A stretch of DNA of 64,000 bases. It comes from an uncultured Candidatus Saccharibacteria bacterium (lineage in GTDB: Bacteria > Patescibacteriota > Doudnabacteria > UBA920). Positions 7,648 through 63,637 of this stretch are shown piece by piece. The stretch covers positions 67,133 through 131,132 of the forward strand of contig CAZKVS010000001.1 in the NCBI GenBank assembly GCA_964556325.1, read 5' to 3'. Both the position numbers and the translations under genes were made by a program. How positions within the stretch are numbered: the first letter of the stretch is position 1; the number at the start of each line of letters is the position of its first letter. The notes below the pieces were generated by a model that worked only from the letters and a program-made list of their open reading frames with translations, was not told the origin of the DNA and searched no databases.

Positions 7648-7650
7648 AAC

Positions 7651-35693: not shown

Positions 35694-35710
35694 TTGGCTG
35701 CCCGTCATAG

Positions 35711-35784: not shown

Positions 35785-35798
35785 ATTAAGAATCTAAA

Positions 35799-35872: not shown

Positions 35873-35943
35873 CCCGTCTCGGCCGAGGAGAGGGCTGCCG
35901 AGCCGAGGTCGGAAATCCTTCCACCCCAGCCAAATAAATATAA

Positions 35944-35981
35944 AAGGCATCCCGACTCCGAATCGGGGCATTCCTAGGTTC
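35944..35981. repeat. Structured repeat R, partial copy 3
   Basis: aaggcatcccgactccgaatcggggcattcctaggttc. Confidence 0.4.
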
Positions 35982-36042
35982 TCCCGACCCCGCTATTATT
36001 TATAATATGACGTCGGGACCCCGACGTTGCGTCGGTGGGAAC

Positions 36043-36059
36043 CCTAGCCGGGCAGCCAA
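36043..36059 (+). repeat. Duplicated 3' 17 nt of tRNA-Gln (cctagccgggcagccaa)
   Basis: Identical to 35769..35785. Confidence 0.65.
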
Positions 36060-36061
36060 CC

Positions 36062-36086
36062 AAAATCGCCGAACAGGCGGTTTTTA
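36062..36086 (+). terminator. Intrinsic terminator (AAAATCGCCGAACAGGCGGTTTTTA), member of a 3-copy motif
   Basis: Stem cgcc/ggcg extended by A/T pairs, then a T-run. Near-identical copies at 37317 and 47845. Confidence 0.6.
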
Positions 36087-36121
36087 TATTATGCCTTTTA
36101 TTGTAGTGCTATCATTAAAGT

Positions 36122-37009
36122 ATGCATATTTTAGTTATTACCGGGGGTTCGTCTTCCGAACGGAAAATTTCTTTGCTTTCGGCAAAGGGGGTTAAGGGCG
36201 CGTTAGTTGCCAACGGGCACGCGGTAACTATGTTTGATTTTAAACGGGGGTATGACCAACTACGGAGTGCGCTTGAGAAGTGTGATATGGTTTTTCCGGT
36301 CATGCACGGCAAAGAAGGGGAGGACGGCACGTTGTATAAGTTTCTCCGCTCTGCTAAAAAGCCGTACGTAGGCTCAGAGCCAAAGGGGGCAAGGGTTGCG
36401 TTTGATAAAATTCTATTTAAAAAGTATTGCGACGCCAAAGGCATTCTTACTGCGCCATGGAAGGTTGTTAAAACCAGAGAAGATATTACTCGGTTTGGGT
36501 TGCCGTGTGTGTTGAAGGCTACCTATGGAGGCTCTTCGCACGAAGTGGCGCTCTTGCACACTGAAAAAGACCTTGCGAGTATTCGCGTTAAAAAAATACT
36601 TGCACTACCGTGCCGCTGGTATGTAGAGAGGCTACTGCAGGGCGTTGAAATTACCGTTGGGGTTCTGAACGGCAAGGCGTTACCGGTAATAGAAATTGTA
36701 CCGCCAAGTGCCGGTTGGTTTGACTATAAAAGTAAGTATTCAGGTGAGTCCCAGGAAATTCCTTTTGCACCGTCGGTAAGTAGTAAAGTTCAAAAACAGG
36801 CGCAAGCTCTCGCACTACGCATACACAAAGACCTTCGCCTAGGTAGTTATTCCCGAACAGACTTTATTGTACAAAATAGTAAGTTGTACATCCTGGAAAC
36901 CAACACCCCCGGCGGTGTCGGGCTTACTTCCGAGAGCCTGCTCCCAAAAGCTGCCAAGGCCATGGGAATGAGCTTTGAAAAACTTATTCAGCAAATGTTA
37001 AAGCAATAA
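36122..37009 (+). CDS. ddl: D-alanine--D-alanine ligase
   Basis: MHILVITGGSSSERKISLLSAKGV N-terminus, ATP-grasp core, C-terminal LYILETNTPGGVG. Confidence 0.85.
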   Translation: MHILVITGGSSSERKISLLSAKGVKGALVANGHAVTMFDFKRGYDQLRSALEKCDMVFPVMHGKEGEDGTLYKFLRSAKKPYVGSEPKGARVAFDKILFKKYCDAKGILTAPWKVVKTREDITRFGLPCVLKATYGGSSHEVALLHTEKDLASIRVKKILALPCRWYVERLLQGVEITVGVLNGKALPVIEIVPPSAGWFDYKSKYSGESQEIPFAPSVSSKVQKQAQALALRIHKDLRLGSYSRTDFIVQNSKLYILETNTPGGVGLTSESLLPKAAKAMGMSFEKLIQQMLKQ

Positions 37010-37316
37010 CGTTTTGGCAAAGGCACCCTATACAAAGGTGACCATTGTGTGGGGGAGTTTTTTGGAACAGTCTGGATTCTGTGATTCAAACCAGCCTGTG
37101 GATATGCGTTTGCGGGCAACGTTTTGAGGAGTGTATAATATATACAGATTTCAAAAGGTACGGTATAACTCCCTGTGAGTTACCGGTAGGCACAGTTGGA
37201 ATACATTCCTGCGTCAAATTAAATGAACTTCTGTCCATACGAGTTCAACTGCTAGGGGAACTGCAGAACCTTAAAGGACAGCCCACGTTATACTGTGCCT
37301 CTTGAAATCTCCCAAA

Positions 37317-37341
37317 ATCGCCAAATAGGCGGTTTTTTATT
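37317..37341 (+). terminator. Intrinsic terminator, second copy of the shared motif
   Basis: aaaatcgccaaataggcggtttttt. Confidence 0.55.
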
Positions 37342-37411
37342 TATTAGAATAAATAATGTTCTTATGATACAATTATATTAAATTTGATCCTTTTCCGGTT
37401 GTAATAAGTTT

Positions 37412-37780
37412 ATGTTCCATGTTTTAATTGCCGAGGATGAAAAGCCGATGGCCCATGCCCTTGTGTTAAAGTTGGCTAAGGCCGGTTTCCATTCCACTGT
37501 AGCGGAAAATGGTCAGATAGCCTTAAATTTGCTGCGCGACGGCCGTTATGACTTATTGCTTTTAGACATAATTATGCCACTCGTGAATGGCTTTTCTGTT
37601 CTGGAACAGTTGAAAAAAGATGGTGAGCATGCCATGCCCATTATCATGACTACCAATTTGGGACAGGAAGAAGACCGAAAAAGAGCCATGGATTTGGGTG
37701 CTGTTGACTACGTTATTAAGTCAGACACGCCAATAGCTCAAATAGTAGAAAAGATTCAGGTTATTTTAAACCCAAAGTAA
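37412..37780 (+). CDS. Stand-alone response-regulator receiver domain
   Basis: VLIAEDE ... LLLDIIMP ... K. Confidence 0.8.
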   Translation: MFHVLIAEDEKPMAHALVLKLAKAGFHSTVAENGQIALNLLRDGRYDLLLLDIIMPLVNGFSVLEQLKKDGEHAMPIIMTTNLGQEEDRKRAMDLGAVDYVIKSDTPIAQIVEKIQVILNPK

Positions 37781-37820
37781 ACAGTATGAGTCGGTTGTGG
37801 GTGGATTGGGTTAGTTTCTT

Positions 37821-38303
37821 ATGCATATGGATGTAGCAAATTATGTAAACGATAAAAAGCATACCCCTGGGTACCGTTGTAATAAGTGTGGCAAACTCTT
37901 GACTGAAGGTGAAGAGCACAAGGTTGAAATACGGTGTAATCGTTGTGGGACACTCAATAAAATATTGGAGAAAATGACCGAGCAAGTAATTGTTACCGAT
38001 GTAAGAGGTACTATACTATTTGTAAACGGAGAAGTTGAACGAATAACCGGTTATAGTGCGGAAGAAGCTATAGGCAAAACGCCTTCTTTGTGGGGCGGGC
38101 AAATGCCGCCGGAATTTTATAAGACTATGTGGTCTACGCTGGTAGACGAGAAACAAGGAGTTTCCGTAAAAGTTACCAATCGGCATAAGTCAGGGTATTT
38201 GTACGACGCGCTTCTCAGAGTTTCTCCGGTGTTGGATAGTCAGGGAAAAATAGAGTTATTTGTTGGTTTTGAGTCTTTGGTTGCCAAGCATCCGCCCCAA
38301 TAA
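37821..38303 (+). CDS. Zn-ribbon + PAS-domain protein
   Basis: CNKCGKL...CNRCG ribbon followed by a PAS-like fold (ITGYSAEEAIGKT...). Confidence 0.55.
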   Translation: MHMDVANYVNDKKHTPGYRCNKCGKLLTEGEEHKVEIRCNRCGTLNKILEKMTEQVIVTDVRGTILFVNGEVERITGYSAEEAIGKTPSLWGGQMPPEFYKTMWSTLVDEKQGVSVKVTNRHKSGYLYDALLRVSPVLDSQGKIELFVGFESLVAKHPPQ

Positions 38304-38380
38304 CTGCTCAAAAATATATATGTCGTAGCTCTTGTAGCTCACTTTTTACTAGGTGAGTTTTTATTTTTTTAGAAAACAAA

Positions 38381-40024
38381 ATGGACGAAATAAAAATACG
38401 AGAAATATTGCTAAAAGAAGACTATGTTTCCGCAGCCGATTTAAAAACTGCCGAGGAGTATGCTAAAAGTCATAAGACCACTTTACTCGATGGTCTTCTG
38501 TCTTTGCAGTTAATTACCAAAGATTTACTGCACCAAGCAATTGCCGAGTTTTTGGGCATGGCTTTTATAGACTTGACTGCAAAGCCGCCGGATAAAAAAG
38601 ATATACTCAGTATTCCGAAAGCTTTGGCGGAAAAAGAAAAAATAATTTTGTACAAGCAAACTTCCAAAGAGGCTACCATCGTTTCTGGTGGGGTTGTGTC
38701 TCCCGAAGCCTTGGCAGAACTGCAGAACCTTTTTGTAAATAAAAAAATAAGTGTTGTCTACGCTGATCCAGAAGCAATTGCACTCGCGATGATGCAGTAT
38801 CGGCCGGCACTTGAAACTCGATTTGGCGAAATTATCAAAGCCGGTGGAAAGGTTGCTCCGGAAATAATCGATCAAATTCTAGACGACGCACTTGCTTTGC
38901 GTGCGTCCGATATCCACTGCGAGCCGCAAGGTGCTGACGTACTTATTCGTTTTAGGATTGACGGAGTATTGCATGAAGCTGGACGAGTACCGAAAGAACA
39001 TTACGAAAACATTGTGAACCGGATTAAGGTGCAGGCCAAGCTGAGAATTGATGAACACTTGGCGAGTCAAGACGGTGCTATCCATTTTAGTGGCACACAT
39101 CATCAGGCAGACCTGCGGGTTTCAATTGTACCCACACTAGACGGTGAAAAAGTGGTTATTCGGGTTTTGGCAGAGTATGTTCGAGACTTTTCTCTCACAG
39201 ATATAGGGTTATCGGCGGAGGATCAACAAACGGTTGTGGAGGCCGCTCATAAACCGTTTGGTATGGTATTGGTGACTGGTCCTACTGGCAGCGGAAAGAC
39301 TACTACGTTATATTCCTTAGTCAAACTGTTAAACGACACGCAAGTTAACATAACCACTATTGAAGACCCGGTTGAGTATAAAATTACCGGCATAAACCAA
39401 ATTCAGGTAAATACTGTAAGCAATTTAACTTTTGCCAAAGGTCTGAGGGCAATAGCCAGGCAAGACCCCAATATTATTTTGGTGGGTGAAATCCGAGATT
39501 TAGAAACGGCGGATATAGCGGTCAACGCAGCGTTAACTGGTCACTTATTACTTTCCACTTTTCACGCCAACGACTCTGCTGCTGTAATGCCAAGGCTTTT
39601 AAACATGGGCATTGAGCCATTTTTACTTTCATCGACTCTGGAATTGATAGTGGCCCAGCGCTTGGTAAGGAAGATATGTGAAAGTTGTCGGTTCACTCAG
39701 AGCGTTACTCTGGACGACATTATAAAGTTGCTGCCACGTGCGAAAGAATATTTTTCAGAAAGTTCCGTAACGCTCTATAACGGTAAAGGGTGTGGTGCGT
39801 GCTCTCAGACTGGCTATAAAGGTCGTTTGGGTTTGTTCGAGTTTTTAAAAGTCACGCCAGAAATGTCCGACTTAATTTTGGCTAACCCTTCGAGTAAACA
39901 AATTTGGCAATTAGCAAAATCCCAAGGCTGTCGAAGTTTGTTTGAAGATGGTATACAAAAAGTTAAAGCGGGACACACGACGTTGGAAGAGTTATTGAGA
40001 GTGGTAAAACCTAAAGATTTATAA
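38381..40024 (+). CDS. pilB: Type IV pilus assembly ATPase PilB (GspE family)
   Basis: N-terminal GSPII_E_N repeats, Walker A VLVTGPTGSGKTTTLYS, Asp/His boxes, C-terminal tetra-Cys (CESC...CGAC). Confidence 0.9.
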   Translation: MDEIKIREILLKEDYVSAADLKTAEEYAKSHKTTLLDGLLSLQLITKDLLHQAIAEFLGMAFIDLTAKPPDKKDILSIPKALAEKEKIILYKQTSKEATIVSGGVVSPEALAELQNLFVNKKISVVYADPEAIALAMMQYRPALETRFGEIIKAGGKVAPEIIDQILDDALALRASDIHCEPQGADVLIRFRIDGVLHEAGRVPKEHYENIVNRIKVQAKLRIDEHLASQDGAIHFSGTHHQADLRVSIVPTLDGEKVVIRVLAEYVRDFSLTDIGLSAEDQQTVVEAAHKPFGMVLVTGPTGSGKTTTLYSLVKLLNDTQVNITTIEDPVEYKITGINQIQVNTVSNLTFAKGLRAIARQDPNIILVGEIRDLETADIAVNAALTGHLLLSTFHANDSAAVMPRLLNMGIEPFLLSSTLELIVAQRLVRKICESCRFTQSVTLDDIIKLLPRAKEYFSESSVTLYNGKGCGACSQTGYKGRLGLFEFLKVTPEMSDLILANPSSKQIWQLAKSQGCRSLFEDGIQKVKAGHTTLEELLRVVKPKDL

Positions 40025-40025
40025 C

Positions 40026-41162
40026 ATGCCTCAGGTAAAAATTCGTAAACGTCAGATTGAAGAAGACTATGAAGCACAACCGCCTTTTGCGTTTCATTCG
40101 GGCTGGCCGTACTTTACTGTTGGCTTTGGTGACGAGATAGACTACTTTGTGGAGAATTTGAGCATTATGATAGCTTCGGGTATGGGTGTAACCGCGGCTT
40201 TGGCTGGCATTAAAGTCGGTACTAAAAACCGGAGTTTAAAAAAGAACATAGCAGTCATAGAACAAATGATTGCCGATGGTTTTCCGCTTTGGAAAGCCTT
40301 TGAGCGCACTCAATTTTTACCCTCTCGAATAATTGCCTTAGTAAAATCGGGTGAAGAATCGGGTCGTTTACCTGAGCACCTCAATTTAGTTACTATCCAA
40401 CAGCATAAAGAACGAATTTTTGTTTCCCGTATACGCTCCGCATTGCTGTATCCGGGTATTGTGCTCGCGTTGGCCTTTGTGGTTGCGGTGGGCAGCGCGT
40501 GGGTCACGCTCCCACGGCTAATTACAGTTTTTAATGAAATTCACACGAGTTTGCCACCCACCACTAGAATGATTATTTGGTTGGGGAATTTTTTGGCCCA
40601 CTACGGCAGTTTCGCAGTTCCCCTCACTCTGTTCGGGGCTGGAGTACTCGTATATGCAATATTTTTTTATACTAAAACTAAAATTGTAGGGGAGTATATT
40701 ATATTATTTTTACCGGGAATAAATAAGCTCATCCAAGGTGTAGAGTTGGCGCGCTTTGGCTATATATTTGGCGCCTTGCTTTCTGCGGGTATTCACATAG
40801 AGGAAGCCATGAGTTCCGTTCGTGAGGGGACTAGCTTTGTATCGTATAGAAAATTCTACGTATTTTTGCAAGACGGCATAAGCCAAGGCAATTCATTTAG
40901 TACCATCTTTGCCGGATATGCACACTCAGATCGCTATATTCCGGCGCCTATGCAAAAACTTATTATTGCTGCTGAGCAAAGTGGTAAATTGCCGGAGACC
41001 TTACTAAAAATTGGCCAAATTTTTGAAGAAAAAACTGAAACCATGAGTCAGGATTTATCTACTATTTTAGAGCCAATAGTTTTAATTGTTGTAGGAATTT
41101 TTGTAGGCTTTATTGTATTAGGTTTAATTAGCCCAATATATGGACTTTCAAGCCAGATATAA
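40026..41162 (+). CDS. pilC: Type IV pilus platform protein PilC (GspF family)
   Basis: Two T2SSF-like repeats and three TM segments. Confidence 0.85.
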   Translation: MPQVKIRKRQIEEDYEAQPPFAFHSGWPYFTVGFGDEIDYFVENLSIMIASGMGVTAALAGIKVGTKNRSLKKNIAVIEQMIADGFPLWKAFERTQFLPSRIIALVKSGEESGRLPEHLNLVTIQQHKERIFVSRIRSALLYPGIVLALAFVVAVGSAWVTLPRLITVFNEIHTSLPPTTRMIIWLGNFLAHYGSFAVPLTLFGAGVLVYAIFFYTKTKIVGEYIILFLPGINKLIQGVELARFGYIFGALLSAGIHIEEAMSSVREGTSFVSYRKFYVFLQDGISQGNSFSTIFAGYAHSDRYIPAPMQKLIIAAEQSGKLPETLLKIGQIFEEKTETMSQDLSTILEPIVLIVVGIFVGFIVLGLISPIYGLSSQI

Positions 41163-41589
41163 CACGCAGGGTTTTAGTCTTATCGAAGTTATGGTTGTGG
41201 TCGGGCTTTTAGCGTTGTTCGCTGGAGCTGTTGGGCCCGTGTACCGAACAGTACAAACCAAGACAAATTTAGATATTGCTGTTGCGGGGGTAGCTTCAGC
41301 GTACAGGCGGGCACAGGCAGCGTCTCAGTCGGGCAACGCTGATGCTAATTGGGGAGTAAAATTTTTTACGACTCATACTGTTGTATTTGCGGGGAACAGT
41401 TATGCAGTAAGGCAAGCTTCCTATGACGAAAAACTAGATTTCCCGGATGACACAACTGTTTCTGGAAATACTGAAGTTGTGTTTACTAAATTTACCGGAT
41501 TACCACAAGCTACTGGAACTACAACAGTAACGAACTCTTTTGGCAGTAAAAACCTCATTGTAAATGCACAAGGAACTGTTACGTACTAA
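41140..41589 (+). CDS. Type IV pilin-like protein (prepilin N-terminal methylation domain)
   Basis: Leader MDFQARYNTQG then FSLIEVMVVVGLLALFAG (G|F, with E5). Confidence 0.7.
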   Translation: MDFQARYNTQGFSLIEVMVVVGLLALFAGAVGPVYRTVQTKTNLDIAVAGVASAYRRAQAASQSGNADANWGVKFFTTHTVVFAGNSYAVRQASYDEKLDFPDDTTVSGNTEVVFTKFTGLPQATGTTTVTNSFGSKNLIVNAQGTVTY

Positions 41590-43747
41590 AAAAGAAACTG
41601 GTTTTTCTGTGGCCGAGGTGGTTATTGCCGCGGCCGTGTTGACTATTTTCATTACGGGGATTACTTCTGCTTTGGTTGCTCTGGGCAGAAATATTAACTC
41701 CTCTGGCCACAAAGCACAAGCAGTGTTGTTGGCTGAAGAAGCCTTGGAAGGCTCGCGTAACATTCGCGACGCGGCTTTTTCTAATCTTATTGACGGAACA
41801 TATGGTATGGCCACGGCTAGTAACCAGTGGAACTTTTCCGGCAGCTCAGATGTAAACGGCATTTATACAAGGCAAACAACTGTTTCTACAGTCAGCGCCA
41901 ACCAAAAACAAATATCATCCACCGTTTCTTGGCGACACGGTGCAGCGTTAAACCGCAGTGTTACTGTATCAACGTACCTAACTAACTGGCTTACGAGCCT
42001 GGCAAGGGGAGGATTATTAGCCTATGGTAATGGCGGCACAACGCTCGACAGTATTTTTTATCGTGTACTAAATAACACCGGTAATTGGTCAGCTGCAGCC
42101 CAAGCAGCAGATATAGATGCTGGTACGAGTAATCGGGCTTTGCGTGCTGTGAGGGTTTACGCGTCGGCTACTCGAAATGAAAAAGTCTTAATTTCCCGAC
42201 ATTACAACGGGACTACTCAATACGTGTACGCGCAAGTGTATAACGGCTCCAGTTGGGGTAATGTGCAATTGCTTTCAAGCTGGACAGCCGGAACTTTTCT
42301 AGATGTGCAAAATTTTGACGGCACATATTTAGCAAATGGCAGTTTCATGGTAATTTTTTCTGATAATACAATTATTCCTAAAATGAGAACCTGGAATGGG
42401 TCTGTGTGGTCTGCTCAAAGCTCTCTCACTACCTTAGGCGCCGGCGCTATACCAAACTATGTAGTGGCTAAAGCTCGTTCGGGTAGCAATGAAGTAATGG
42501 CGGCATTTTTTACACAAAATTCTAGAACAATTAGTGAATATTATAACGGTAGCGCCTGGTCGGCAATTACATCACATGCGGCAGCTGCGCCGGTTAATAC
42601 AACTAGGTTTGTAGATTTTGCCTGGAGTCCAAACAATGCTTTAAAAGGCGGTTTGGTATATTCCACCGGAGCTGCCGACAGGGCTTTGCATATAAAAATT
42701 TGGACAGCGAATGGTTTGGGTAGTGGGAGTTGGAGTGCTGTAGCCAATACTGCGAATCAAGGAGTTGGGTCAACGAGGCTGGGGGCAGTGTCTATTGTGG
42801 GTCGGCCGGGAGCAGATGAATTTATTGCCTGTAACAAAAATACCAGCCTGCAAATTATCTGCTACAAAAGTACTTTTACCCCTACGTGGACTAACCCAAC
42901 TAACCAAAGCCTAACCGCGACCACCAATGCAGGAATACAGCGTCCATTTCATATGGGTTTTGAATCGGTGTCCGGTGACCCCGCTATTGGCGTTTATTCC
43001 GACGCGACTGCTACGCCAAAACTAAAAAAGTATACAGCTTCAAGCTCCACGTGGGACGCTTCCGCTACCAGCTTAAATACTTTATTAGCTTCTTTAGCTT
43101 CGGTAAAAGTAATACCCGCTCCAACCACCAATGATATTTTGGTGTTGCTTGGAGACACAAATGCAGATCTCTATTCCACTATTTGGGATGGAACCAATAA
43201 TGTAATATATTCGCCACCCTTGGGAAATACTTCCATAGAAAGTAACTTGGATTCCAATACAGTTGGGAGAGCTGAAAGCTTTTTTGCTACTGCTACTGCC
43301 AGTGGCACTATAAATAGTATCAGTGTGTTCCTTGAATCAACTTCTACATCAACAAATTTAGTAGCTGGATTATATACAAACTCTGGGGGGAGCCCAGGAA
43401 CCCTGCTCTCACAAGGGAGTAGCTCTACTTTGATAAATGGAGCATGGAACACTATTGCTATTCCTTCAGTTACTCTAACTTCCGGTACAAGTTATTGGAT
43501 ATCTATTTTAGGCACGGCTGGCGGAGTTCCTAGATTTAGGGACAGAAGCGGGGGCCCTTGTAATAGTGAAACAAGTGCCTCTACAACGTTAACTTCATTG
43601 CCGGCATCCTGGACCACTGGCACTGTATTTACGACTTGTCCTTTGTCAGCTTATGTCAGTGGGAATGGTAATTCTTTTACACCTCACGGTATCAGTGGCT
43701 CCGCTACTACTGATTATTGGTACGATTTTGCTTGGGACGTATTTTAG
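41564..43747 (+). CDS. Giant pilin-like protein (prepilin N-terminus + ~690 aa Ser/Thr/Gly/Asn-rich beta-rich domain)
   Basis: Leader ...KKETG then FSVAEVVIAAAVLTIF. The rest is low in charge and rich in S/T/G/N/W, like an adhesin. Confidence 0.65.
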   Translation: MHKELLRTKKETGFSVAEVVIAAAVLTIFITGITSALVALGRNINSSGHKAQAVLLAEEALEGSRNIRDAAFSNLIDGTYGMATASNQWNFSGSSDVNGIYTRQTTVSTVSANQKQISSTVSWRHGAALNRSVTVSTYLTNWLTSLARGGLLAYGNGGTTLDSIFYRVLNNTGNWSAAAQAADIDAGTSNRALRAVRVYASATRNEKVLISRHYNGTTQYVYAQVYNGSSWGNVQLLSSWTAGTFLDVQNFDGTYLANGSFMVIFSDNTIIPKMRTWNGSVWSAQSSLTTLGAGAIPNYVVAKARSGSNEVMAAFFTQNSRTISEYYNGSAWSAITSHAAAAPVNTTRFVDFAWSPNNALKGGLVYSTGAADRALHIKIWTANGLGSGSWSAVANTANQGVGSTRLGAVSIVGRPGADEFIACNKNTSLQIICYKSTFTPTWTNPTNQSLTATTNAGIQRPFHMGFESVSGDPAIGVYSDATATPKLKKYTASSSTWDASATSLNTLLASLASVKVIPAPTTNDILVLLGDTNADLYSTIWDGTNNVIYSPPLGNTSIESNLDSNTVGRAESFFATATASGTINSISVFLESTSTSTNLVAGLYTNSGGSPGTLLSQGSSSTLINGAWNTIAIPSVTLTSGTSYWISILGTAGGVPRFRDRSGGPCNSETSASTTLTSLPASWTTGTVFTTCPLSAYVSGNGNSFTPHGISGSATTDYWYDFAWDVF

Positions 43748-43759
43748 AAATGGAAAAAT

Positions 43760-44287
43760 ATGAATCCTAAATTAGGAATACATCGCACACATACGCAGGT
43801 TGGTTTTACCCTTATAGAAATGCTGGTCTATACCGCACTGTTTGCGTTAATGGTTTCGGCGTTGGTGGCGTTTATGAGTACGTTGTCTCAAAGTCGGATA
43901 CGTAACCAGGCCGTGCTGGAGGTGAATGACCAGGCTGCGCAGGTTATGCGGGTTATTACTCAAAATGTACGCAATGCCACGTCTGTAAGTTCCCCCAGCA
44001 TTGGCACTTCGGGGAGCTCGCTTTCTGTTAATACAGTTTTACCCGCTACTACTCCTACCACGTTTACGGTGTCGGGCGGTACTTTATACATTACCCAGGG
44101 TTCAGGTGGGGCTGTGGCGCTGACTAACAACAGAGTAGCCGTAAGTAATGTATTATTTTCCAATTTGTCGAGGGCTTCAACGTTCGGTACGGTGAGAGTG
44201 AGCTTTACTCTACGGAGCGTCTCTTCTGCAACTCAGGCGCAATATAACTATTCAGCAAATTTTTATGGTACGGGTACTCTACGATAA
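43760..44287 (+). CDS. Type IV pilin/pseudopilin
   Basis: MNPKLGIHRTHTQVG then FTLIEMLVYTALFALMV. Confidence 0.7.
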   Translation: MNPKLGIHRTHTQVGFTLIEMLVYTALFALMVSALVAFMSTLSQSRIRNQAVLEVNDQAAQVMRVITQNVRNATSVSSPSIGTSGSSLSVNTVLPATTPTTFTVSGGTLYITQGSGGAVALTNNRVAVSNVLFSNLSRASTFGTVRVSFTLRSVSSATQAQYNYSANFYGTGTLR

Positions 44288-44669
44288 AAGTTATACAGGA
44301 TTTGTAACGCTCTATAGCGTGATAATTTTGGGCTCGATTGGTTTAGTCCTGGTTGCAGCATTGGCCGCTACAAGCATATGGGTTATTCGTACGAGTGGTG
44401 ATGACAAAAATTCTGCTCAGGCACGCAAGGCTGCGGATAGTTGTGTGGAACTAGCCTTGCAAGCTATGCACGATAGCAATAGCTTTACTGGCAGTGGCAA
44501 TGCTTCCGTTGGTGGCGCAACGTGTACTTATGTAGTGACCAACACCGGTGGGAATAACCGCACTGTGGGTGCTACAGGCACAGTTGGTGCCCTGGTACGT
44601 AGAGTTTCTGTTACAACTACTGCCTTTACTCCTTCCCTTACTGTTTCTAGCTGGCAAGAAGTGCCTTAG
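44265..44669 (+). CDS. Minor pilin-like protein (PilX-like, lacks E5)
   Basis: Hydrophobic N-terminus (GFVTLYSVIILGSIGLVLVAALA), then an S/T/G-rich domain. Overlaps the previous gene by 23 nt. Confidence 0.4.
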   Translation: MVRVLYDKSYTGFVTLYSVIILGSIGLVLVAALAATSIWVIRTSGDDKNSAQARKAADSCVELALQAMHDSNSFTGSGNASVGGATCTYVVTNTGGNNRTVGATGTVGALVRRVSVTTTAFTPSLTVSSWQEVP

Positions 44670-44699
44670 GTATTAAATTATTTTCTAGCGTTCAAAAAT

Positions 44700-46958
44700 A
44701 TGAAACAATTCCCTAAAAAAATATTTACCACCACCGTCCGAGAATCGGAACTAGTTGCCCAAGGTGTTAAGAAGCTCACTCTGCAACCAGCTGAGGATTT
44801 CTCCTTTACTCCCGGGCAATATGTGTGGGTGGAAATTCCTACACTTAAAATTGGTGATCCTGCGGGTAACAGAAAAGCATTTTCTATTTGCAGTCTTCCA
44901 AACTCTCAAAACACTTTTTCGGTTGTAGCCAGAGAAAGTGCAAGCGGTTTTAAAAAAGCGTGGTTTGCGCTGAGCCCCGGGGATACGGTAATAACTCATG
45001 GTCCATTTGGTTCAAGCTTTGGTATACATGAGCACTTTCCAAAGAATATAGTTATGATTGCCGGAGGGGTGGGCGTCGCGCCTTTCTTGCCAGTCATTGA
45101 GCTAATACAAAAACGGGCCTTACCCATACGGTGTATTCTTATCTATCTTGACAAAACAGAAGAATCTACCCCGTTTCTCTCTGAACTTGAGCAGCTACAA
45201 AATACAAACAGTTTTTTTGAATATCGTGCAGTGTATGACTATTTTTCATGGGGGTATATAAAAACTAAGTACGAAAATCTAACAGGCGCTACTGAGTGGT
45301 GGGTGTCTGGTTCACAGAAGATGGTTGAGTATGTGTATGCCGAGTTGTCAAAAGGTGGGGTGGCGCGGGAACACATGGTTTTTGAAAATTATTACCCAAG
45401 TTCAAAAGACAACTTAAACATAGAGCAGGTGAGAGAGCAAATGCAGAAAGAGGGTTTACTTACCCAGGCCATACAAAACTCCACTAACCATACAATAATT
45501 ACCGACTCCAACGGTATTGTGTTGTTTGCAAACAAAGCTGCTGAAAAAATAACTGGTTATTCGCAGGCCGAAATTTTGGGGAATACCCCCCGGTTGTGGG
45601 GCGGTATGATGGATCCGGCTTTTTATAAAGATTTTTGGCAGAAAAAGAGGTCCGGCCAGTCGTTTGAAGGTGAGATGACTAATCGTCGAAAAAACGGCGA
45701 GCTGTATCATACCATAGCCCACATTGCGCCAATTTTCGGAACAAGCAAAGAGATTATTGGTTTTATTGGCACCGAAGAAGATGTCACCAGTCTAAAGAAA
45801 CAGGAAGAAAAAATACTTCAGGATAAATTAAAAGATGAAGCTATTTTAAGTAGCATTGGAGAAAGCGTTATAGCAACCGACAATACGGGTAAGGTTGTGT
45901 TTGCAAACCAAACTGCTCTAGACTTGTTTGAGCAGCCTGAAGAAATAGTATTTAATAAAAAAATTTGGGACATTCTTATTTTAGTCGATGCTAAGGGAGG
46001 GTTAATTACAGAAGCGAGTCGTCCTATGAAGTTGGCATTAACTACAGGAAAGAAGATTATAACTTCTGAGTATTGTTTTTACAACGAAAACAACAAAAAG
46101 AAAATTGTAGTGGCTATTACTGCGACTCCTGTAATTTTAGATGGCTCTATTATTGGAGCAATAGAAATTATCCGCGATATTACAAAAGAAAAAGAAATAG
46201 ATCAAGCCAAAACTGAATTTGTCTCTCTAGCTAGTCACCAACTGCGTACGCCGCTTTCGGCAATAAATTGGTATACAGAAATGCTCCTTGCCGGAGACGC
46301 AGGAAAACTAAATGATGAGCAGGAGAAATATCTTAAAGAGGTGTACACAGGTAATCAACGCATGGTGGAATTGGTTAACGCACTGCTAAATGTGTCTCGC
46401 TTAGATTTGGGAACCTTTGTCATTGAACCAAAGCCGACTGATGTTTTAGCGTTGGCAAAAAGCGTACTTGGCGAATTGCAGCCGCTCATTACGCAAAAGC
46501 AATTAACTGTTACAGAACATTTTAGTCAAGGCATTCCCCAGTTCAATGCAGATGAAAAATTACTTCGCATGGTGTTCCAAAACTTGTTGTCTAACTCTGT
46601 AAAATACACCTTACTTAAAGGTTCTGTAACGGCTGACGTTACCGTGGTATCTAAAGATGAAATGTTTGGTGGTAAAAAAGTTGCGGTGGACAGCTTGGCT
46701 ATTTGTGTATCCGATTCCGGTATGGGCATTCCCACTGCGCAGCACGCTAAAATTTTCTCAAAGTTATTTCGAGCCGACAATGCTATGGAAACAGAGGCTG
46801 AGGGCACGGGGCTAGGTTTGTATATTGTAAAATCAATCGTTGACCAGTCAGGTGGAAAGATTTGGTTTAAGTCGGAACAAGATAAAGGAACTGAATTTTA
46901 TGTATTATTTCCCATAACTGGTATGAAGTCAAAAGATGGTTTAAAGAAGCTTGAATAA
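44700..46958 (+). CDS. Hybrid sensor histidine kinase with an N-terminal FNR-like FAD/NAD(P)H-binding oxidoreductase domain, PAS repeats, HisKA and HATPase
   Basis: RKAFSICS (RxYS-type FAD motif), MIAGGVGVAPFLP (GGxGxxP NAD motif), two PAS segments, H-box LASHQLRTPLSAI, G-boxes DSGMGI and GTGLGL. Confidence 0.75.
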   Translation: MKQFPKKIFTTTVRESELVAQGVKKLTLQPAEDFSFTPGQYVWVEIPTLKIGDPAGNRKAFSICSLPNSQNTFSVVARESASGFKKAWFALSPGDTVITHGPFGSSFGIHEHFPKNIVMIAGGVGVAPFLPVIELIQKRALPIRCILIYLDKTEESTPFLSELEQLQNTNSFFEYRAVYDYFSWGYIKTKYENLTGATEWWVSGSQKMVEYVYAELSKGGVAREHMVFENYYPSSKDNLNIEQVREQMQKEGLLTQAIQNSTNHTIITDSNGIVLFANKAAEKITGYSQAEILGNTPRLWGGMMDPAFYKDFWQKKRSGQSFEGEMTNRRKNGELYHTIAHIAPIFGTSKEIIGFIGTEEDVTSLKKQEEKILQDKLKDEAILSSIGESVIATDNTGKVVFANQTALDLFEQPEEIVFNKKIWDILILVDAKGGLITEASRPMKLALTTGKKIITSEYCFYNENNKKKIVVAITATPVILDGSIIGAIEIIRDITKEKEIDQAKTEFVSLASHQLRTPLSAINWYTEMLLAGDAGKLNDEQEKYLKEVYTGNQRMVELVNALLNVSRLDLGTFVIEPKPTDVLALAKSVLGELQPLITQKQLTVTEHFSQGIPQFNADEKLLRMVFQNLLSNSVKYTLLKGSVTADVTVVSKDEMFGGKKVAVDSLAICVSDSGMGIPTAQHAKIFSKLFRADNAMETEAEGTGLGLYIVKSIVDQSGGKIWFKSEQDKGTEFYVLFPITGMKSKDGLKKLE

Positions 46959-47382
46959 ATTAATGAGTAAACATATGTCTATGTCAAACGAAGATAAGGT
47001 GGTATTAGTGCTCGAAGACGAGCGGCCTTTGCTAGAGGCTATAAAATTAAAACTAGAAAAAAATAGTTTTGAGGTGGTAACGGCTCGAACTGTGGAGCAG
47101 GCAAAACAGTACGTTGACGATTTAGTAAAGGTAGATGTTATTTGGCTGGATCATTACCTCCTTGGTAAGGAGAACGGGTTAGATTTTGTGGCTTGGTGCA
47201 AGGAAGAAAATAATGCTAAGTGCAAAAACATTCCTATATTTGTAGTTTCAAACACCGCCAGCGCAGATAAAGTTTCTACGTACATGCGTCTCGGTGCAAA
47301 AGAATATTTTGTGAAGTCAAACCATCGGCTAGATGAAATTGTAAAAGCAATTGCTGACTATTTAAACAAGGGGATTGAATAA
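46951..47382 (+). CDS. Stand-alone response-regulator receiver domain
   Basis: VVLVLEDE ... IWLDHYL ... K. Confidence 0.7.
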   Translation: MNKLMSKHMSMSNEDKVVLVLEDERPLLEAIKLKLEKNSFEVVTARTVEQAKQYVDDLVKVDVIWLDHYLLGKENGLDFVAWCKEENNAKCKNIPIFVVSNTASADKVSTYMRLGAKEYFVKSNHRLDEIVKAIADYLNKGIE

Positions 47383-47391
47383 TAACTTATT

Positions 47392-47784
47392 ATGGAAAAT
47401 AAAAAGACAATTTTGGTGGTGGAAGTTGTAGAAGATGAGGCACCACTCCGAAATGCACTTGTAGAAAAATTATCTCGTGAAGGATTCTCAGTCTTAAACG
47501 CAAAAAATGGCGAAGAGGGATTACAAACAGCTTTGTCTAATCACCCGAACTTAATATTGCTTGACATTATAATGCCAAAAATGAATGGATTAGAAATGTT
47601 AGAAAAGTTGAGAGCCGATGCCTGGGGTAAAACAGCACACGTGATAATGCTTACTAACCTAAGCGACAACGAAAAAATTGCCGAAGCAATGCATAGCCAC
47701 GCCTTTGATTATTTTGTGAAGTCTGATATTAAAATTCAAGAAGTAGTAGATAAAATAAAAGAAAAGTTATTGCATAAAGCATAG
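47392..47784 (+). CDS. Stand-alone response-regulator receiver domain
   Basis: ILVVEVVEDE ... LILLDIIMPKMNG ... K. Confidence 0.8.
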   Translation: MENKKTILVVEVVEDEAPLRNALVEKLSREGFSVLNAKNGEEGLQTALSNHPNLILLDIIMPKMNGLEMLEKLRADAWGKTAHVIMLTNLSDNEKIAEAMHSHAFDYFVKSDIKIQEVVDKIKEKLLHKA

Positions 47785-47844
47785 TATATAAGTTGGTTTT
47801 ATTAATGAAGTAGTATACTAAGGCGTCGTATAGGGGAGTTTGTC

Positions 47845-47871
47845 GGAAAATCGCCGAATAGGCAGTTTTTT
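47845..47871 (+). terminator. Intrinsic terminator, third copy of the shared motif
   Basis: ggaaaatcgccgaataggcagtttttt. Confidence 0.5.
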
Positions 47872-47907
47872 GATATGCTGAATTGAGAATTTGCTATAGT
47901 CGTTATC

Positions 47908-48537
47908 ATGACAGCAGAACGCGAGTTTTTTGTAGTAAAACCAGAGCTTGTGCAGTCAGACCCATGGGTTGAACTTGTGCGCAGGGAGCGGGAGTTGGGA
48001 GAGGTGCACGAGCGGATGCTTTTGGCTTTGCAGTATGTGAAGGGTGAGAGAGATGCTGCGCTTGTTTTGGGTGATGCTTCTAAGGTGCAGGCTAAATATT
48101 TACTAGAGCAAGCTGGTTTTGGATTGGTGACAGATGTAGATATAAGTCCCAGCTTAGGGGATGATGAAGTAGTGCCCCTTTCGGAAGAGCGACTAAAACG
48201 AATTGTTTCTCCGTTTGATGGATACATGCCGCCGGAAGAAAGTTTTAATTTTATATATGGCAAGTCTTTAGCTTTTAACCCAAAAGAGACTACACCGGAA
48301 GTTTTGCTCCGTATGCAGCTTGCTTTAACTGAGGGTGGTATATTTTCGGCTGCGTGGGCAGGGGAGTACGACGAGTTCCGCTCCAAACATTATTCCCAAG
48401 AAGAGCTTGAACAACTGTACATTCAGAGCGGGTTACACATCCTACATATGGATAATCGAACCCCTGAGGAAGTGCGGGGACTCAATTCAACTCGAGTTGC
48501 GCATTTAATAGATATTATTGCCGAAAAGAGTAATTAA
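47908..48537 (+). CDS. Hypothetical protein
   Basis: 209 aa with balanced composition. The overlapping minus-strand ORF is Ser-rich and low-complexity, so it is likely spurious. Confidence 0.45.
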   Translation: MTAEREFFVVKPELVQSDPWVELVRRERELGEVHERMLLALQYVKGERDAALVLGDASKVQAKYLLEQAGFGLVTDVDISPSLGDDEVVPLSEERLKRIVSPFDGYMPPEESFNFIYGKSLAFNPKETTPEVLLRMQLALTEGGIFSAAWAGEYDEFRSKHYSQEELEQLYIQSGLHILHMDNRTPEEVRGLNSTRVAHLIDIIAEKSN

Positions 48538-49843: not shown

Positions 49844-51040
49844 ATGCGTAAAAAAGTTCCTTCGGCGGTGTGGTTTCTGGGAGTGGTGAGTTTTTTAAAC
49901 GATACAGCCTCGGAAATGTTGTATCCTATTATGCCTATTTTCCTTACCCAAGTATTGGGTGCGCCAGTGTTTGTGGTGGGTATTATAGAAGGCATAGCAG
50001 AAGGCGGAGCGTCATTTTTTAAAACCGTGTTTGGCTACTGGTCGGACCGCTTGCAAAAACGTAAAGTGTTTGTAGTGGCGGGGTATGGCGCTAGTACCAT
50101 TTCTAAAGTTATAATTGCCCTGGCCTATACCTGGCCCATTGTTTTGCTCGGACGCATAGTAGACCGTGTGGGGAAGGGCGCCCGGACTGGTGCTCGGGAT
50201 GCATTGCTACTGGAAGCCACGGACGAAACCAACAAAGGGTTTATTTTTGGTTTTCACCGAACTATGGATACGGCCGGTGCGGTAGTGGGACCGCTGTTGG
50301 CCTTAGTCTTGCTGTGGGTTTTTCACAACAACATTCGATTAGTCTTGTACGTTGCGGTAGTGCCGGCGCTGGCGGCACTCGTCTTTTTTGCCTGGGTGAA
50401 GGAAGCGAAGAAACAGTATCAAACTACAAAGACTAAACTCACGTTAGCGGTGAAGGGGTTTCCCCCCAAGCTCAAACTCTTTTTGGTTGGCTTGTGCTTG
50501 TTCTCGCTTGGTAACTCGTCCGATAGTTTTCTCATTTTGCGAGCGAAAGACCTGGGCCTAAGCCTAACTATGGTTATAGCTGCGTACATTGTGTACAACA
50601 TTGTGTACGCCGCGGCCTCAGTGCCAGCGGGATTGTTGGCAGATAAAATTGGTCCGAAAAAAGTCTTTATTGCCGGTATACTTATTTTTGCCTTGGTGTA
50701 TTTAGGTTTTGCCTACAACACCCATGCAAGCACGGTGTGGGTATTGTTCGCAGTCTACGGTTTTTACATAGCTTTAACCGACGGCGTGTCTAAGGCGCTC
50801 GTTGGTCACTTTACCCCGCCGGAACAAGCAGGGGTCGTGTACGGCGTGCTGGGTACGGTGACTAGTTTGTTTACCTTGCTTGCCTCCGTACTGGGTGGGT
50901 TTTTGTGGAGCAGTGTTTCGCCAACTGCGACTTTCTTGTTTGCAGTAGTGTGCGCATTGCTCTCCCTTGTTATTTTCTTATTTTTAAAAACAGATTCTCC
51001 GGTGCTGATTGAAGTTGCCCGTCCAGGACAAAACAGGTAA
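49844..51040 (+). CDS. MFS transporter
   Basis: About 12 TM helices. GRIVDRVGKG loop motif between TM2 and TM3. Confidence 0.7.
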   Translation: MRKKVPSAVWFLGVVSFLNDTASEMLYPIMPIFLTQVLGAPVFVVGIIEGIAEGGASFFKTVFGYWSDRLQKRKVFVVAGYGASTISKVIIALAYTWPIVLLGRIVDRVGKGARTGARDALLLEATDETNKGFIFGFHRTMDTAGAVVGPLLALVLLWVFHNNIRLVLYVAVVPALAALVFFAWVKEAKKQYQTTKTKLTLAVKGFPPKLKLFLVGLCLFSLGNSSDSFLILRAKDLGLSLTMVIAAYIVYNIVYAAASVPAGLLADKIGPKKVFIAGILIFALVYLGFAYNTHASTVWVLFAVYGFYIALTDGVSKALVGHFTPPEQAGVVYGVLGTVTSLFTLLASVLGGFLWSSVSPTATFLFAVVCALLSLVIFLFLKTDSPVLIEVARPGQNR

Positions 51041-51144
51041 AATTTAAAAAGAGGTACGTTTCTAGTCGATTACTTTAGCTGGTTGACTATTAATGTGGCA
51101 TTCAGTGGGTTATTTTTTGCGAAGCAAAAGCGTAACTTGATTTA

Positions 51145-51807
51145 ATGAATTATTGTACGTTGTCTATGGCTATTATAAATGGAATGAGAGATACAATACA
51201 GTGGTATGATGAGAACGCTACTGAATATGCTACTGCGGGCAAAGACTTAACTTTCCATACAGGAATTGAAAAGTTTACCTCTTATTTATTGCCCGGTTCT
51301 AAAGTTCTCGATGCTGGTTGTGGAGCAGGTAGGGATTCGCAGGTTTTACATGCAATGGGTTTGCATGTTACTGGAGTTGATCTTTCTGAGGGCTTGCTTA
51401 AAGAGGCGCGCAAGCGATGCCCAGATGTTAATTTCGTACTTGGAGACTTGCTTGACTTGCCTTTTGAAAACGAATCCTTTGATGGGGTGTGGGCGCACGC
51501 TTCTCTCGTTCATCTGGAAACAATTCAACAGGCACAAAAAGTATTGCTTGAATTTCATAGAGTATTAAAATCTAACGGAGTTGTATACATGATGGTAAAA
51601 CAACAGATGGGTAGTGATAAAACTGCCGTTGTTTCAGACACGCTCTCAAATCATGACAGATTTTTCCAATATTATAATAAGGAGGAACTTGTGGCCTTAG
51701 TAGAAAAGGCGCAGTTGACTACTTTATTCATCGTAGATGATGTAGACGATAGGGCGGGTCGGTCTGATACCAAGTGGATATGGTTAATAGCTAGAAAGAC
51801 AACATAA
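51145..51807 (+). CDS. Class I SAM-dependent methyltransferase
   Basis: VLDAGCGAGRDS (motif I) and later DGVWAHASLVHL. Confidence 0.75.
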   Translation: MNYCTLSMAIINGMRDTIQWYDENATEYATAGKDLTFHTGIEKFTSYLLPGSKVLDAGCGAGRDSQVLHAMGLHVTGVDLSEGLLKEARKRCPDVNFVLGDLLDLPFENESFDGVWAHASLVHLETIQQAQKVLLEFHRVLKSNGVVYMMVKQQMGSDKTAVVSDTLSNHDRFFQYYNKEELVALVEKAQLTTLFIVDDVDDRAGRSDTKWIWLIARKTT

Positions 51808-52339: not shown

Positions 52340-52585
52340 ATGCCACAACAAGCAGGAACCTATTGTGAAAGTTGCATGATGCCGTTTGCCAAAGATCCGG
52401 GCAAGCGTGAATCAGATAAGTACTGTAGTCTCTGTTTTAAAGACGGTAAGCTGCAGTATGAAGGTAATGACCTAAAAGAGTTTCAACGAGTCGCTTACGA
52501 AAGCATGATTAAGCGCGGCACGAACAAGTGGTTGGCAAAGCTTTATACTTTTATGATTCGCTTTGCCCCTCGCTGGAAGAAATAA
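52340..52585 (+). CDS. Zinc-ribbon small protein
   Basis: CESC...CSLC pair. Confidence 0.45.
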   Translation: MPQQAGTYCESCMMPFAKDPGKRESDKYCSLCFKDGKLQYEGNDLKEFQRVAYESMIKRGTNKWLAKLYTFMIRFAPRWKK

Positions 52586-52592
52586 TCTCTCC

Positions 52593-52748
52593 TGTCATTC
52601 CGGAAGCTACCCACCTACGCCAAGGCTTCGGCGGGCAGGCGAGTCAATCTCCAACCAAGCAAGGGCTACTTGTCCGACGTAGCTTTAGCGAAGTTGGGTC
52701 CGGAATCCATCTTAACACCTGGATCCCGGCTCAGAGGCCGGGATGACG
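52593..52748. repeat. MITE-like element with TGTCATTCCGG / CCGGGATGAC terminal inverted repeats (copy A, 156 bp)
   Basis: Starts tgtcattccggaagc and ends ggccgggatgacgg. Internal sub-palindromes tccggaatcc and ggatcccgg. Confidence 0.6.
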
Positions 52749-52769
52749 GCTACTTTTGGAAGAAATATA

Positions 52770-53012
52770 ATGCATAATCAATCCAACGACCCACTACACG
52801 GAAAGACGCTACAAGCAATTGTAGAGTTTTTGGTAGCGGAGTATGGGTGGGAAAACTTAGGCACACGGATAAAGATTAAATGTTTTCAGGTAAACCCCAG
52901 TGTAAAATCCAGCCTGACCTTCTTGCGTCGTACCTCTTGGGCGCGCGAGCAAGTAGAAGCGTTGTACGTGGGTGCTATTCGTGAAAAGCCCACAGATATG
53001 TCGTTTGAGTAA
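52770..53012 (+). CDS. DUF2132 (VF530-like) small protein
   Basis: LHGKTLQAIVEFLVAEYGWENLG...KSSLTFLRRTSWAREQVEALY. Confidence 0.55.
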   Translation: MHNQSNDPLHGKTLQAIVEFLVAEYGWENLGTRIKIKCFQVNPSVKSSLTFLRRTSWAREQVEALYVGAIREKPTDMSFE

Positions 53013-53075
53013 ATATGGAAAAACATCCCCGCATATCGCTGGCGTAATTAGCAGGCCTCTCACATTGCCCACTCT

Positions 53076-53182
53076 CTGTCATTCCGGTTTCCACGAGGTC
53101 TTCCGAGGGAATACCGGAATCCAGTATTTCTAAGGCGTGGATCCCGGACAGCCCGCGAGGGCTTGTGGCTTCCGGGATGACA
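53076..53182. repeat. MITE-like element, copy B (107 bp)
   Basis: tgtcattccggtttcc...ggcttccgggatgaca. Confidence 0.6.
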
Positions 53183-62525: not shown

Positions 62526-62640
62526 TCGCAAAGAAATTTCCAATTTCTAATTACTAATTTCTAATGTGAAGTACAAAAACCTTATTGTATTCATAATTAG
62601 AAATTAGATATTAGGCATTAGATATTTGAGTCAAAACTAA
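62526..62640. repeat. Word-built intergenic palindrome (CTAAT words)
   Basis: ccaatttctaattactaatttctaatgtg ... cataattagaaattagatattaggcattagatattt. Confidence 0.65.
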
Positions 62641-63577: not shown

Positions 63578-63637
63578 TGTCATTCCGGACGCTACAAGTC
63601 CCGATGCCGCATCGGGATGCGGGCGATCCGGAATCCA
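63578..63637. repeat. MITE-like element, short copy C, containing the TCCCGATGCCGCATCGGGA core
   Basis: tgtcattccggacgctacaagtcccgatgccgcatcgggatgcgggcgatccggaatcc. Confidence 0.55.

Follow-up and report, generated by a model that had tools for sequence, protein, structure and literature searches.

We analysed a 64 kb stretch of DNA from a Patescibacteria genome (hereafter the window), in which short repeats beginning with TGTCATTCCGG lie on both sides of a small gene of the VF530/DUF2132 family. A sequence-only reading had taken these repeats for a family of miniature inverted-repeat transposable elements (MITEs). Our analysis reveals six hairpin units instead. Very probably they belong to the REP elements (repetitive extragenic palindromes) tagged with CGTC or TGTC, a class that includes the dRS3/NTS repeats of Neisseria and the Ssn-related motifs (SRMs). 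Their anatomy, class features, stem covariation and distribution are observed directly, and the hallmarks of a transposon are missing. The units are a further member of an already described, widespread class, and are real but ordinary in this sense. This explanation of the repeats, taken as a whole, is in our judgement likely.

Anatomy of the repeat units

The motif TGTCATTCCGG is found exactly at positions 52593, 53077 and 63578 of the plus strand. With one mismatch it is found at 35244 (plus strand) and, inverted, at 53172–53182. These five sites, counted with up to one mismatch, compare with 0.72 expected, and five were reached in 0 of 100 shuffles, which confirms that the repeats claimed before are present. 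The sub-motifs reported with them are found as well: CCGGGATGAC exactly at 52738 and 53172, CCGGAATCCA at 52700, 53114 and 63628, and TGGATCCCGG at 52720 and 53138. The view that the copies are one element of variable length does not hold. They are six hairpin units, two of them singletons at 35244 and 63578 and the other four arranged in two pairs with the tags outside, copy A (52593–52748) and copy B (53077–53182).

From 5' to 3', a unit has a leader rich in pyrimidines, the YGTC tag, a stem of 8 bp whose two complementary arms enclose a loop, and an unpaired CCA tail. The stem arm ATTCCGGN pairs with N'CCGGAAT, and its ATCCCGG form, ATCCCGGN, is seen in both minus-strand units. GTC is located directly 5' of the stem in all six units, with T as the preceding base in five and C in one (52748, minus strand). 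A C directly 3' of the palindrome is also common to all six. The tail is CCA in five units and CTA at 35277. Window loops measure 6, 22, 24, 37 and 94 nt. Sequences before the tags are rich in pyrimidines (CTCTCC, CACTCTC, CCTCCTT and CCCCCC), and in the DNA folds both tag and tail are left unpaired.

Pairs A and B are both head-to-head (HH) with 10–14 nt between their units, and in both an ATTCCGG unit is on the left and an ATCCCGG unit on the right. Each unit is perfectly self-complementary, while end-to-end pairing of the termini of a pair would hold a T.G mismatch. Since copies A and B are each made of two inverted units, what appears as their “terminal inverted repeats” is formed by two distinct hairpins, of which it represents the heads. 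The left unit of copy A (52593–52709, parsed as 52594–52706, plus strand) starts 7 nt beyond the stop codon of a Zn_ribbon_2 gene and has the tag TGTC, the stem ATTCCGGA/TCCGGAAT, a structured loop of 94 nt and the tail CCA. Its partner on the right (52720–52748, parsed as 52723–52747, minus strand), with CGTC, ATCCCGGC/GCCGGGAT, a 6-nt loop and CCA, is the most canonical, NTS-like unit of the window. In copy B, the left unit (53077–53123, parsed as 53078–53120, plus strand) is composed of TGTC, ATTCCGGT/ACCGGAAT, a 24-nt loop resembling the unit at 35244, and CCA. The right unit (53138–53182, parsed as 53141–53181, minus strand) has TGTC, ATCCCGGA/TCCGGGAT, a 22-nt loop with an inner hairpin, and CCA. 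Copy C is a single unit (63578–63637, parsed as 63579–63634, plus strand) with TGTC, the same stem ATTCCGGA/TCCGGAAT as in copy A and the tail CCA. Its loop holds the hairpin TCCCGATGCCGCATCGGGA (63599–63617), which also adjoins a GIY-YIG nuclease gene of the window; this region matches the minus strand of 35409–35431 over 23 nt.

The last unit, TGTC-ATTCC..GGAAT-CTA (35244–35279, parsed as 35245–35276, plus strand), lies 8 nt past the stop codon of a Beta-lactamase2 gene (34201–35235), and the GIY-YIG gene follows about 170 nt downstream. It was counted earlier as a short copy of the family. The tag layout is indeed the same, but the unit is degenerate, with a stem of 5 bp, and its fold is not better than that of shuffled sequences (z = −0.75 as RNA and +0.10 as DNA). 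An identical copy of its sequence exists in another stretch of the same assembly. By comparison, copies A, B and C as single strands each fold better than 200 of 200 shuffles, with RNA-fold z values of −3.9, −4.7 and −4.5, respectively, and DNA-fold z values of −3.8 for copy B and −4.2 for copy C. A search of Rfam with gathering and E-value thresholds matched no family to the units, and its sole match was a chance one to a long non-coding RNA. At all four window loci a co-oriented gene lies upstream, with distances of 7, 64, 69 and 8 nt from stop codon to unit. The description of the family as dispersed, non-coding and non-autonomous, with inverted ends, is retained.

Relation to CGTC-tagged REPs and NTS

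CGTC-tagged REPs were defined by stems of 8–9 bp that almost always start with an A-T pair, and by a 3-nt tail with the consensus CCA (PMC3733652). In that survey HH pairs predominate and tag-inside (TT) pairs are rare, the units lie near the 3' ends of upstream open reading frames (ORFs), and no dedicated transposase accompanies them (PMC3733652). The window units share with the families CGTC-1 to CGTC-4 the tag at one end, the 8-bp stem starting with AT, the CCA tail, the predominance of HH pairs, the position at ORF 3' ends and the lack of a dedicated transposase. Bradyrhizobium and its relatives are rich in ATTCCGG units like those of the window, and loops of the Bradyrhizobium CGTC-1 family are variable (PMC3733652). 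There are also differences. The tag is mostly TGTC in the window and CGTC in the published REPs, although the SRM definition allows T through its first letter, H. Window loops span 6–94 nt with nested hairpins, compared with 4–5 nt in the published CGTC families. Furthermore, five phyla were listed for CGTC-REPs in 2013, and Patescibacteria, to which the host belongs, is none of them (PMC3733652). The MreB protein of the window is 81–83% identical to proteins named Patescibacteria or Doudnabacteria.

The CGTC-1 family of Neisseria corresponds to dRS3 (PMC3733652), which was redefined as the 28-nt NTS, CGTCATTCCCGCGMAVGCGGGAATCYRG (Chenal et al. 2025, PMC11893778). SsnA, a GIY-YIG protein of small size, binds this sequence and cleaves a few nucleotides upstream of it; both occur with single-stranded DNA (ssDNA) only and with the tagged strand only. 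In NTS, the GTC 5' of the palindrome controls cleavage, while the C right 3' of the palindrome controls binding. Ssn homologues with related SRM hairpins in their flanks number in the thousands, and units of the NTS class act as ssDNA hairpin sites for Ssn nucleases and make transforming DNA in which they are present recombine less (PMC11893778). The window units have in common with dRS3/NTS the GTC-ATTCC...GGAAT-C layout, the ssDNA hairpins and the clustering around variable genes, and Neisseria and the window genome each have a small single-domain GIY-YIG gene. The stem is ATTCCGG in the window and ATTCCCGCG in the Neisseria NTS. The likeness to NTS is one of sequence, and cleavage is known for the Neisseria SsnA.

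Two other kinds of small repeats are similar in part. The GTAG-type REPs, with bacterial interspersed mosaic elements (BIMEs) and REPINs, are also short extragenic palindromes that occur as singlets and inverted doublets at intergenic 3' positions, but they carry a GTAG tag and are associated with a Y1 transposase, of which the window has none. Bacterial MITEs such as Correia/NEMIS, RUP and ERIC are likewise small, non-coding and intergenic with inverted ends. They differ from the window units in their conserved interiors, target-site duplications and cognate insertion sequences (ISs).

Units in other genomes

The sequence-only reading had called for further copies of the repeat, and many are present in other genomes. 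We searched IMG/VR and species-representative genomes with the pattern TGTCATTCCGG-N10-40-CCGGAATCC. Matches were found in 18 IMG/VR (viral-contig) stretches and in at least 120 stretches of species-representative genomes; the results below refer to the matches listed. The hosts include Bradyrhizobium, Bosea, Rhodoplanes, Methylobacterium, many uncultured Alphaproteobacteria, and also Deltaproteobacteria, Nitrospirae, Omnitrophota, Cloacimonadota, Chloroflexi, Bacteroidetes, Ignavibacteria, KSB1 and two Saccharibacteria metagenome-assembled genomes. The motif is common to these many phyla, with loops that are specific to each lineage. A total of 345 units were parsed, among which 115 tag-outside (HH) pairs, a single tag-inside (TT) pair and 117 singletons are observed, and the median spacer of pairs is 28 nt. 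NTS-identical units adjoin ATTCCGG units within the same loci.

The eighth stem pair, just inside the fixed CCGG, is not constrained by the search pattern. Of 138 distinct interiors, 124 have a Watson-Crick pair at this position (61 ± 4.9 in the control), and four pair types are represented. This excess, together with the four pair types, demonstrates a covarying stem of 8 bp. In the tail, whose first two bases are fixed by the pattern, A occupies the third position in 187 of 205 units. The head base is T in 197 and C in 88, counts that are biased by the pattern. In the relative L145 the loop of a unit is 5 nt long. The published SRM pattern, HGTCWYN(0-2)YYVSBRHN(0-5)WNVSBRGN(0-2)RNCYNB, gives 40 matches to short-loop ATTCCGG and ATCCCGG units of other loci (L001, L033, L035 and L153 included).

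As a separate observation, the 8 nt before GTC are strongly pyrimidine-rich in 117 tag-outside pairs (loci L001–L143), and the mirror flanks are correspondingly purine-rich. In Neisseria, SsnA cuts in this region 5' of the tag (PMC11893778).

The VF530 locus and its relatives

The VF530/DUF2132 gene (52770–53012, plus strand; PF09905, E = 5.9e-32) is located between the two tag-outside pairs, in agreement with the earlier statement that copies A and B flank a DUF2132 gene. The recorded product of 89 aa (P0018, NCBI) starts at ATG 52743, a codon that falls within copy A, at its right end (GGGATGACGG). Homologues of 70–83 aa and the orthologue in the relative L234 indicate that the true start is ATG 52770. 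A second coding call touches the repeats. The ORF 52528–52746 is most likely spurious, as had been suggested, and has no Pfam match, but it does not lie wholly within copy A: over its first 65 nt it shares sequence, in a different frame, with the Zn_ribbon_2 gene at the 3' end of the latter. The repeats have thus produced two spurious coding calls, this ORF and an N-terminal extension of VF530 by 9 residues. The stretch 52743–52771 has a 10/12 promoter-like match (ATGACG-17-TATAAT), which is probably due to chance.

Comparison with relatives shows that the repeats and the gene come and go. In the relative L020 the gene order is syntenic and the GIY-YIG protein is 86% identical to that of the window. 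Its Zn_ribbon_2 and Ser_hydrolase genes are adjacent, with neither the VF530 gene nor copies A and B between them. An unrelated perfect hairpin of 22 bp is found behind Zn_ribbon_2 at the site of copy A, and GTCATTCC is not found in 20 kb of L020. Likewise, the gene preceding the 35244 unit is missing at the corresponding place. In the relatives L234 and L235, VF530 is 81% identical and its neighbourhood is different, with a tag-outside pair 26 nt past the VF530 stop codon. The right unit of this pair is clearly orthologous to the right unit of copy B. A compensatory double change is seen in the stem (ATTCCGGA..TCCGGAAT versus ATCCCGGA..TCCGGGAT in copy B), and the loops of the left units differ by an 18-nt indel. 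From this comparison, the units stay with the gene over substantial divergence and the local hairpin is conserved. The relatives L230–L233, where VF530 is 88% identical, have no units. Loops thus turn over, and unit sites are gained or lost among relatives. The region also swaps small accessory genes among relatives, with REP units adjoining window-specific genes.

Gene content around these sites differs in further ways. In L020, ddl almost directly adjoins the DUF1697, AHSA1 and Zn_ribbon_2 genes. Positions ~37000–48500 and 49844–51807 of the window hold about 11 kb that are extra compared with L020 (response regulators, PAS kinases, and pilB, pilC and pilin genes). Small genes are different between the two as well (MFS transporter, methyltransferase, NUDIX).

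The GIY-YIG gene as a candidate partner

The window encodes an 80-aa single-domain GIY-YIG nuclease (35451–35693, plus strand; PF01541, E = 1.8e-15). This protein is also present on a contig of 1,057 bp in the metagenome assembly GCA_020049755.1. Its model has a GIY-YIG fold with a predicted local distance difference test (pLDDT) score of 91, and a PDB search returns the minimal GIY-YIG fold. The spacing of the catalytic motif, Y5/Y15/E61, is like that of SsnA, Y6/Y17/E64. Based on these features, the protein may be an Ssn-type partner of the units, for which it is a candidate.

Several results weigh against the units being sites of such a nuclease. The nearest solved folds of the window protein are UPF0213 proteins and the nuclease domain of SLX1. 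In a flank test modelled on the Ssn paper, with 80 metagenome loci (L150–L229) carrying homologues of 37–64% identity, a different hairpin, TCCCGAY-N-RTCGGGA, lies within 300 nt of the gene in 57 loci. A GTCAT-type unit is found in just one of the 80 (L153). This one locus speaks for the nuclease reading, since the unit matches the SRM pattern and lies 98 nt upstream of a homologue with 60% identity to the window protein. In the relatives L020 and L144, the GIY-YIG gene is present and no unit lies within 20 kb. The SRM pattern has 0 matches in the window, because the loops there (6–94 nt against 0–5 nt) are too long for it. Across the other genomes, stem mismatches show no strand-specific excess of G.T (15 G.T versus 15 A.C). 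Singletons have no orientation bias towards flanking ORFs (12 sense versus 16 antisense), in a test based on crude ORF calls that placed 47 units, mostly of high-GC loci, as intragenic. In addition, the analysis of this genome covers 64 kb.

The hairpin TCCCGAY..RTCGGGA is tied to the nuclease clade, with 88 occurrences in 42.8 kb near the gene versus 27 in 207.6 kb elsewhere, an enrichment of about 16-fold. It shares with NTS just the TCCCG/CGGGA core, and a GTC tag is carried by about half of these hairpins, which is not above chance. With its small nuclease and a hairpin of its own in the flanks, the clade behaves like an Ssn-type module. Since the homologues are tied to a different hairpin, it is by analogy that we infer a nuclease partner for the GTCATTCCGG units. 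No GIY-YIG ORF was found in the 138 loci retrieved by the DNA pattern, which is uninformative because the repeats are dispersed. A tblastn search of plasmids with the window protein gave no match. In the homologue locus L169, a GTCAT-tagged hairpin at 1038–1073 has a TCCCGA hairpin at its tip (GTCATGCTTCATCCCGACTTCATCGGGATGAAGCAT), 1.9 kb from the GIY-YIG homologue. This is the second case, after 63579–63634 of the window, of both hairpin types in one unit. The window case physically connects the hairpin of the nuclease clade with the tagged units.

A tRNA-embedded module

In the window, the GIY-YIG gene is located inside an array of tRNA-Gln-derived sequence (35361–36060). Upstream of the gene is the 5' part of a tRNA with a hairpin insert in the D-loop (35380–35405), and TCCCGATGCCGCATCGGGA (35412–35430) occupies the place of the anticodon arm in this tRNA-like sequence. 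The ORF begins directly after GGTTCGAATCCT. Downstream of the gene an intact tRNA-Gln(CTG) is found (35711–35784), preceded by CGTCAT (35703–35708) and bracketed by a perfect inverted repeat of 18 nt (35687–35704 and 35775–35792). Further tRNA fragments follow at 35800–35935 and 35944–36060, with hairpin inserts at the anticodon-arm and T-loop positions.

This arrangement recurs among the homologue loci. A tRNA gene lies on the same strand within 400 nt of the nuclease gene in 56 of the 80, most commonly tRNA-Asn(GTT). In the five loci inspected (L150, L161, L168, L169 and L182), the neighbouring tRNA has a second copy in which a hairpin stands in for the anticodon arm, wholly or in part. The duplicated neighbour is tRNA-Asn in L168 and L169, tRNA-Pro in L161 and tRNA-Gln in L150, and such copies adjoin the gene on one side or on both. 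Hairpin loops vary between 5 and 16 nt, and a T-arm-like motif follows about 40% of the hairpins. We know of no description of such a tRNA-embedded GIY-YIG and hairpin arrangement. A related observation comes from L145, where two tRNA-Gln-like copies (~9920–9960 and 10400–10470) have TCCCG/CGGGA anticodon stems and 7-nt loops, ATCTGAT (CTG, Gln) and ATCTAAT (CTA, which would decode amber).

TCCCGAY..RTCGGGA hairpins are located where duplicated neighbouring tRNA genes (Asn, Pro, Gln) would have their anticodon arms, in D- and T-loops of the decayed tRNA-Gln copies of the window, and in the loop of the REP unit at 63579–63634. One could imagine that the gene at 35451–35693 is an Ssn-like selfish module, whose hairpin TCCCGAY-N(1-12)-RTCGGGA is inserted or copied into the loops of folded single strands. 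We regard this as quite unlikely. If true, it would be a case of hairpin propagation driven by a nuclease and free of any transposase, it would account for the loops of the window REP units being swollen and nested, and it might explain how REPs of the CGTC type spread, a question that has been open since 2013. In a variant of this reading, the tRNA scaffolds may be the source of a small RNA that partners the nuclease.

Alternative explanations

The MITE or transposon reading is not supported. It would have the repeats as classical MITEs, deletion derivatives of an IS that are moved in trans by a DDE transposase recognising 11-bp terminal inverted repeats. The two long copies do have inverted termini, TGTCATTCCGG and CCGGGATGACA, and relatives do differ in presence and absence. 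Nevertheless, the singletons carry one terminus only, and the interiors of the copies are unrelated apart from one nested hairpin. Target-site duplications, which the sequence-only reading proposed to look for, are found neither at copies A, B and C nor in 117 pairs of the listed matches from other genomes, where 2–8 nt direct repeats at 16 boundary offsets show no excess at any offset. The transposase with matching termini that it also sought is not found either: a Pfam scan of the ~60 window ORFs revealed no transposase of any kind, be it DDE, IS200/IS605 Y1, IS110 or IS630. Taken together, the one-ended singletons, unrelated interiors, missing duplications and missing transposase in the window leave this reading without support. 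Moreover, a motif spread over many phyla with lineage-specific loops is unlike an IS-derived MITE, and the compensatory change near VF530 keeps the local hairpin of a unit and not the end-to-end pairing. We consider classical MITEs extremely improbable. Mobility could instead be provided by a REP-associated tyrosine transposase (RAYT; IS200/IS605-type Y1, TnpA-REP) encoded elsewhere in the genome, and the design of the repeats, with singlets, inverted doublets (REPINs) and intergenic 3' positions, is like that of REPs moved in this way. The tag is YGTC and not GTAG, however, no Y1 transposase (Y1_Tnp) is present among the ~60 window ORFs, and REPs of the CGTC type had no transposase association in the survey that defined them (PMC3733652), which makes a RAYT very unlikely. 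That the units are target or attachment sites of a site-specific recombinase or an IS110/Piv-type element is highly improbable. dRS3, of the same class, is a documented target of the recombinase of a Neisseria filamentous prophage (PMC11893778), and the units bracket window-specific genes, but the window has no recombinase, integrase or IS110 gene, and no unit is interrupted by an inserted element, the small loop hairpins aside.

A role at the RNA level differs from these, being compatible with our best explanation. Here the units would be transcribed hairpins of 3' untranslated regions, terminator-like or stabilising the mRNA, with no nuclease partner at the DNA level. All four window loci lie 7–70 nt past a co-oriented gene, the folds are strong, and the copy A site in L020 holds an unrelated perfect hairpin. 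Many REPs were argued to be transcribed (Di Nocera et al. 2013, PMC3733652). On the other hand, a terminator consensus scan called 0 units, and copy B and the 35244 unit have no T-run. The equal numbers of G.T and A.C mismatches (15:15, no excess on the tagged strand) and the lack of a sense bias among singletons elsewhere (12 versus 16) also speak against an RNA-level role, and no Rfam family matches. An RNA hairpin would leave the conserved, unpaired GTC tag and CCA tail unexplained. As a full account of the repeats, we find this role unlikely.

Other repeats in the window

The window holds further repeats. An AT-rich palindromic family at 5641–5741, 14454–14543 and 62530–62628 has ATTAGAAATTAGRTATTAG-type periods of 7–8 nt and forms intergenic, imperfect palindromes of 86 nt. 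Related GAATTATGAATCATGAA repeats are found at 5135, 7224, 7296, 10557 and 19394. A GAF-PAS histidine kinase gene (7765–9429) is bracketed by inverted repeats of about 100 nt (7650–7750 and 9436–9557), each with two arms of 45–46 nt that are 85–87% identical and show TACGAAT/GCGAAT periods. A gene for a “23S rRNA-intervening sequence protein” (PF05635, 17829–18197) lies between 29-nt inverted repeats, ATCTCTAATCCTTGATCTTTAATCCTTAA and TTAAGGATTAAGCATTACAGATTAGAGAT (17785–18222), of which a third copy is found at 13985–14013. A terminator-like hairpin with a T-run, CCAAAATCGCCGAAYAGGCGGTTTTTTAT, is present in three copies (36060–36092, 37312–37344 and 47845–47877).

Proposed mechanism and implications

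Units of the CGTC/NTS type could work in the window genome as they do in Neisseria. By analogy, the tagged strands would be ssDNA nuclease sites at the borders of variable genes. A tagged strand, once single-stranded, would fold into a hairpin, and a small GIY-YIG nuclease of the Ssn type would bind it and make its cut on the 5' side of the tag, a few nucleotides away. With its tags outside, a pair would offer one cut site per strand. A gene bracketed by pairs, such as VF530, would then be split from its flanking homology on incoming or replicating single-stranded DNA, and such cuts could shape the recombination of variable gene cassettes. The window contains type IV pilus genes (38381–44287), which make incoming ssDNA plausible. 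That this nuclease-target mechanism operates in this genome is a tentative proposal, which we hold to be plausible but short of probable.

For annotation, the “new MITE family” is replaced by REP hairpins of the CGTC/NTS type, and the class is extended to a genome of Patescibacteria, which belong to the candidate phyla radiation (CPR). The nested hairpins, together with the tRNA scaffolds, provide a concrete lead on how the units spread. CPR bacteria are believed to rely on DNA uptake. Nuclease hairpins that bracket variable genes would bear on the exchange of accessory genes in their reduced genomes.

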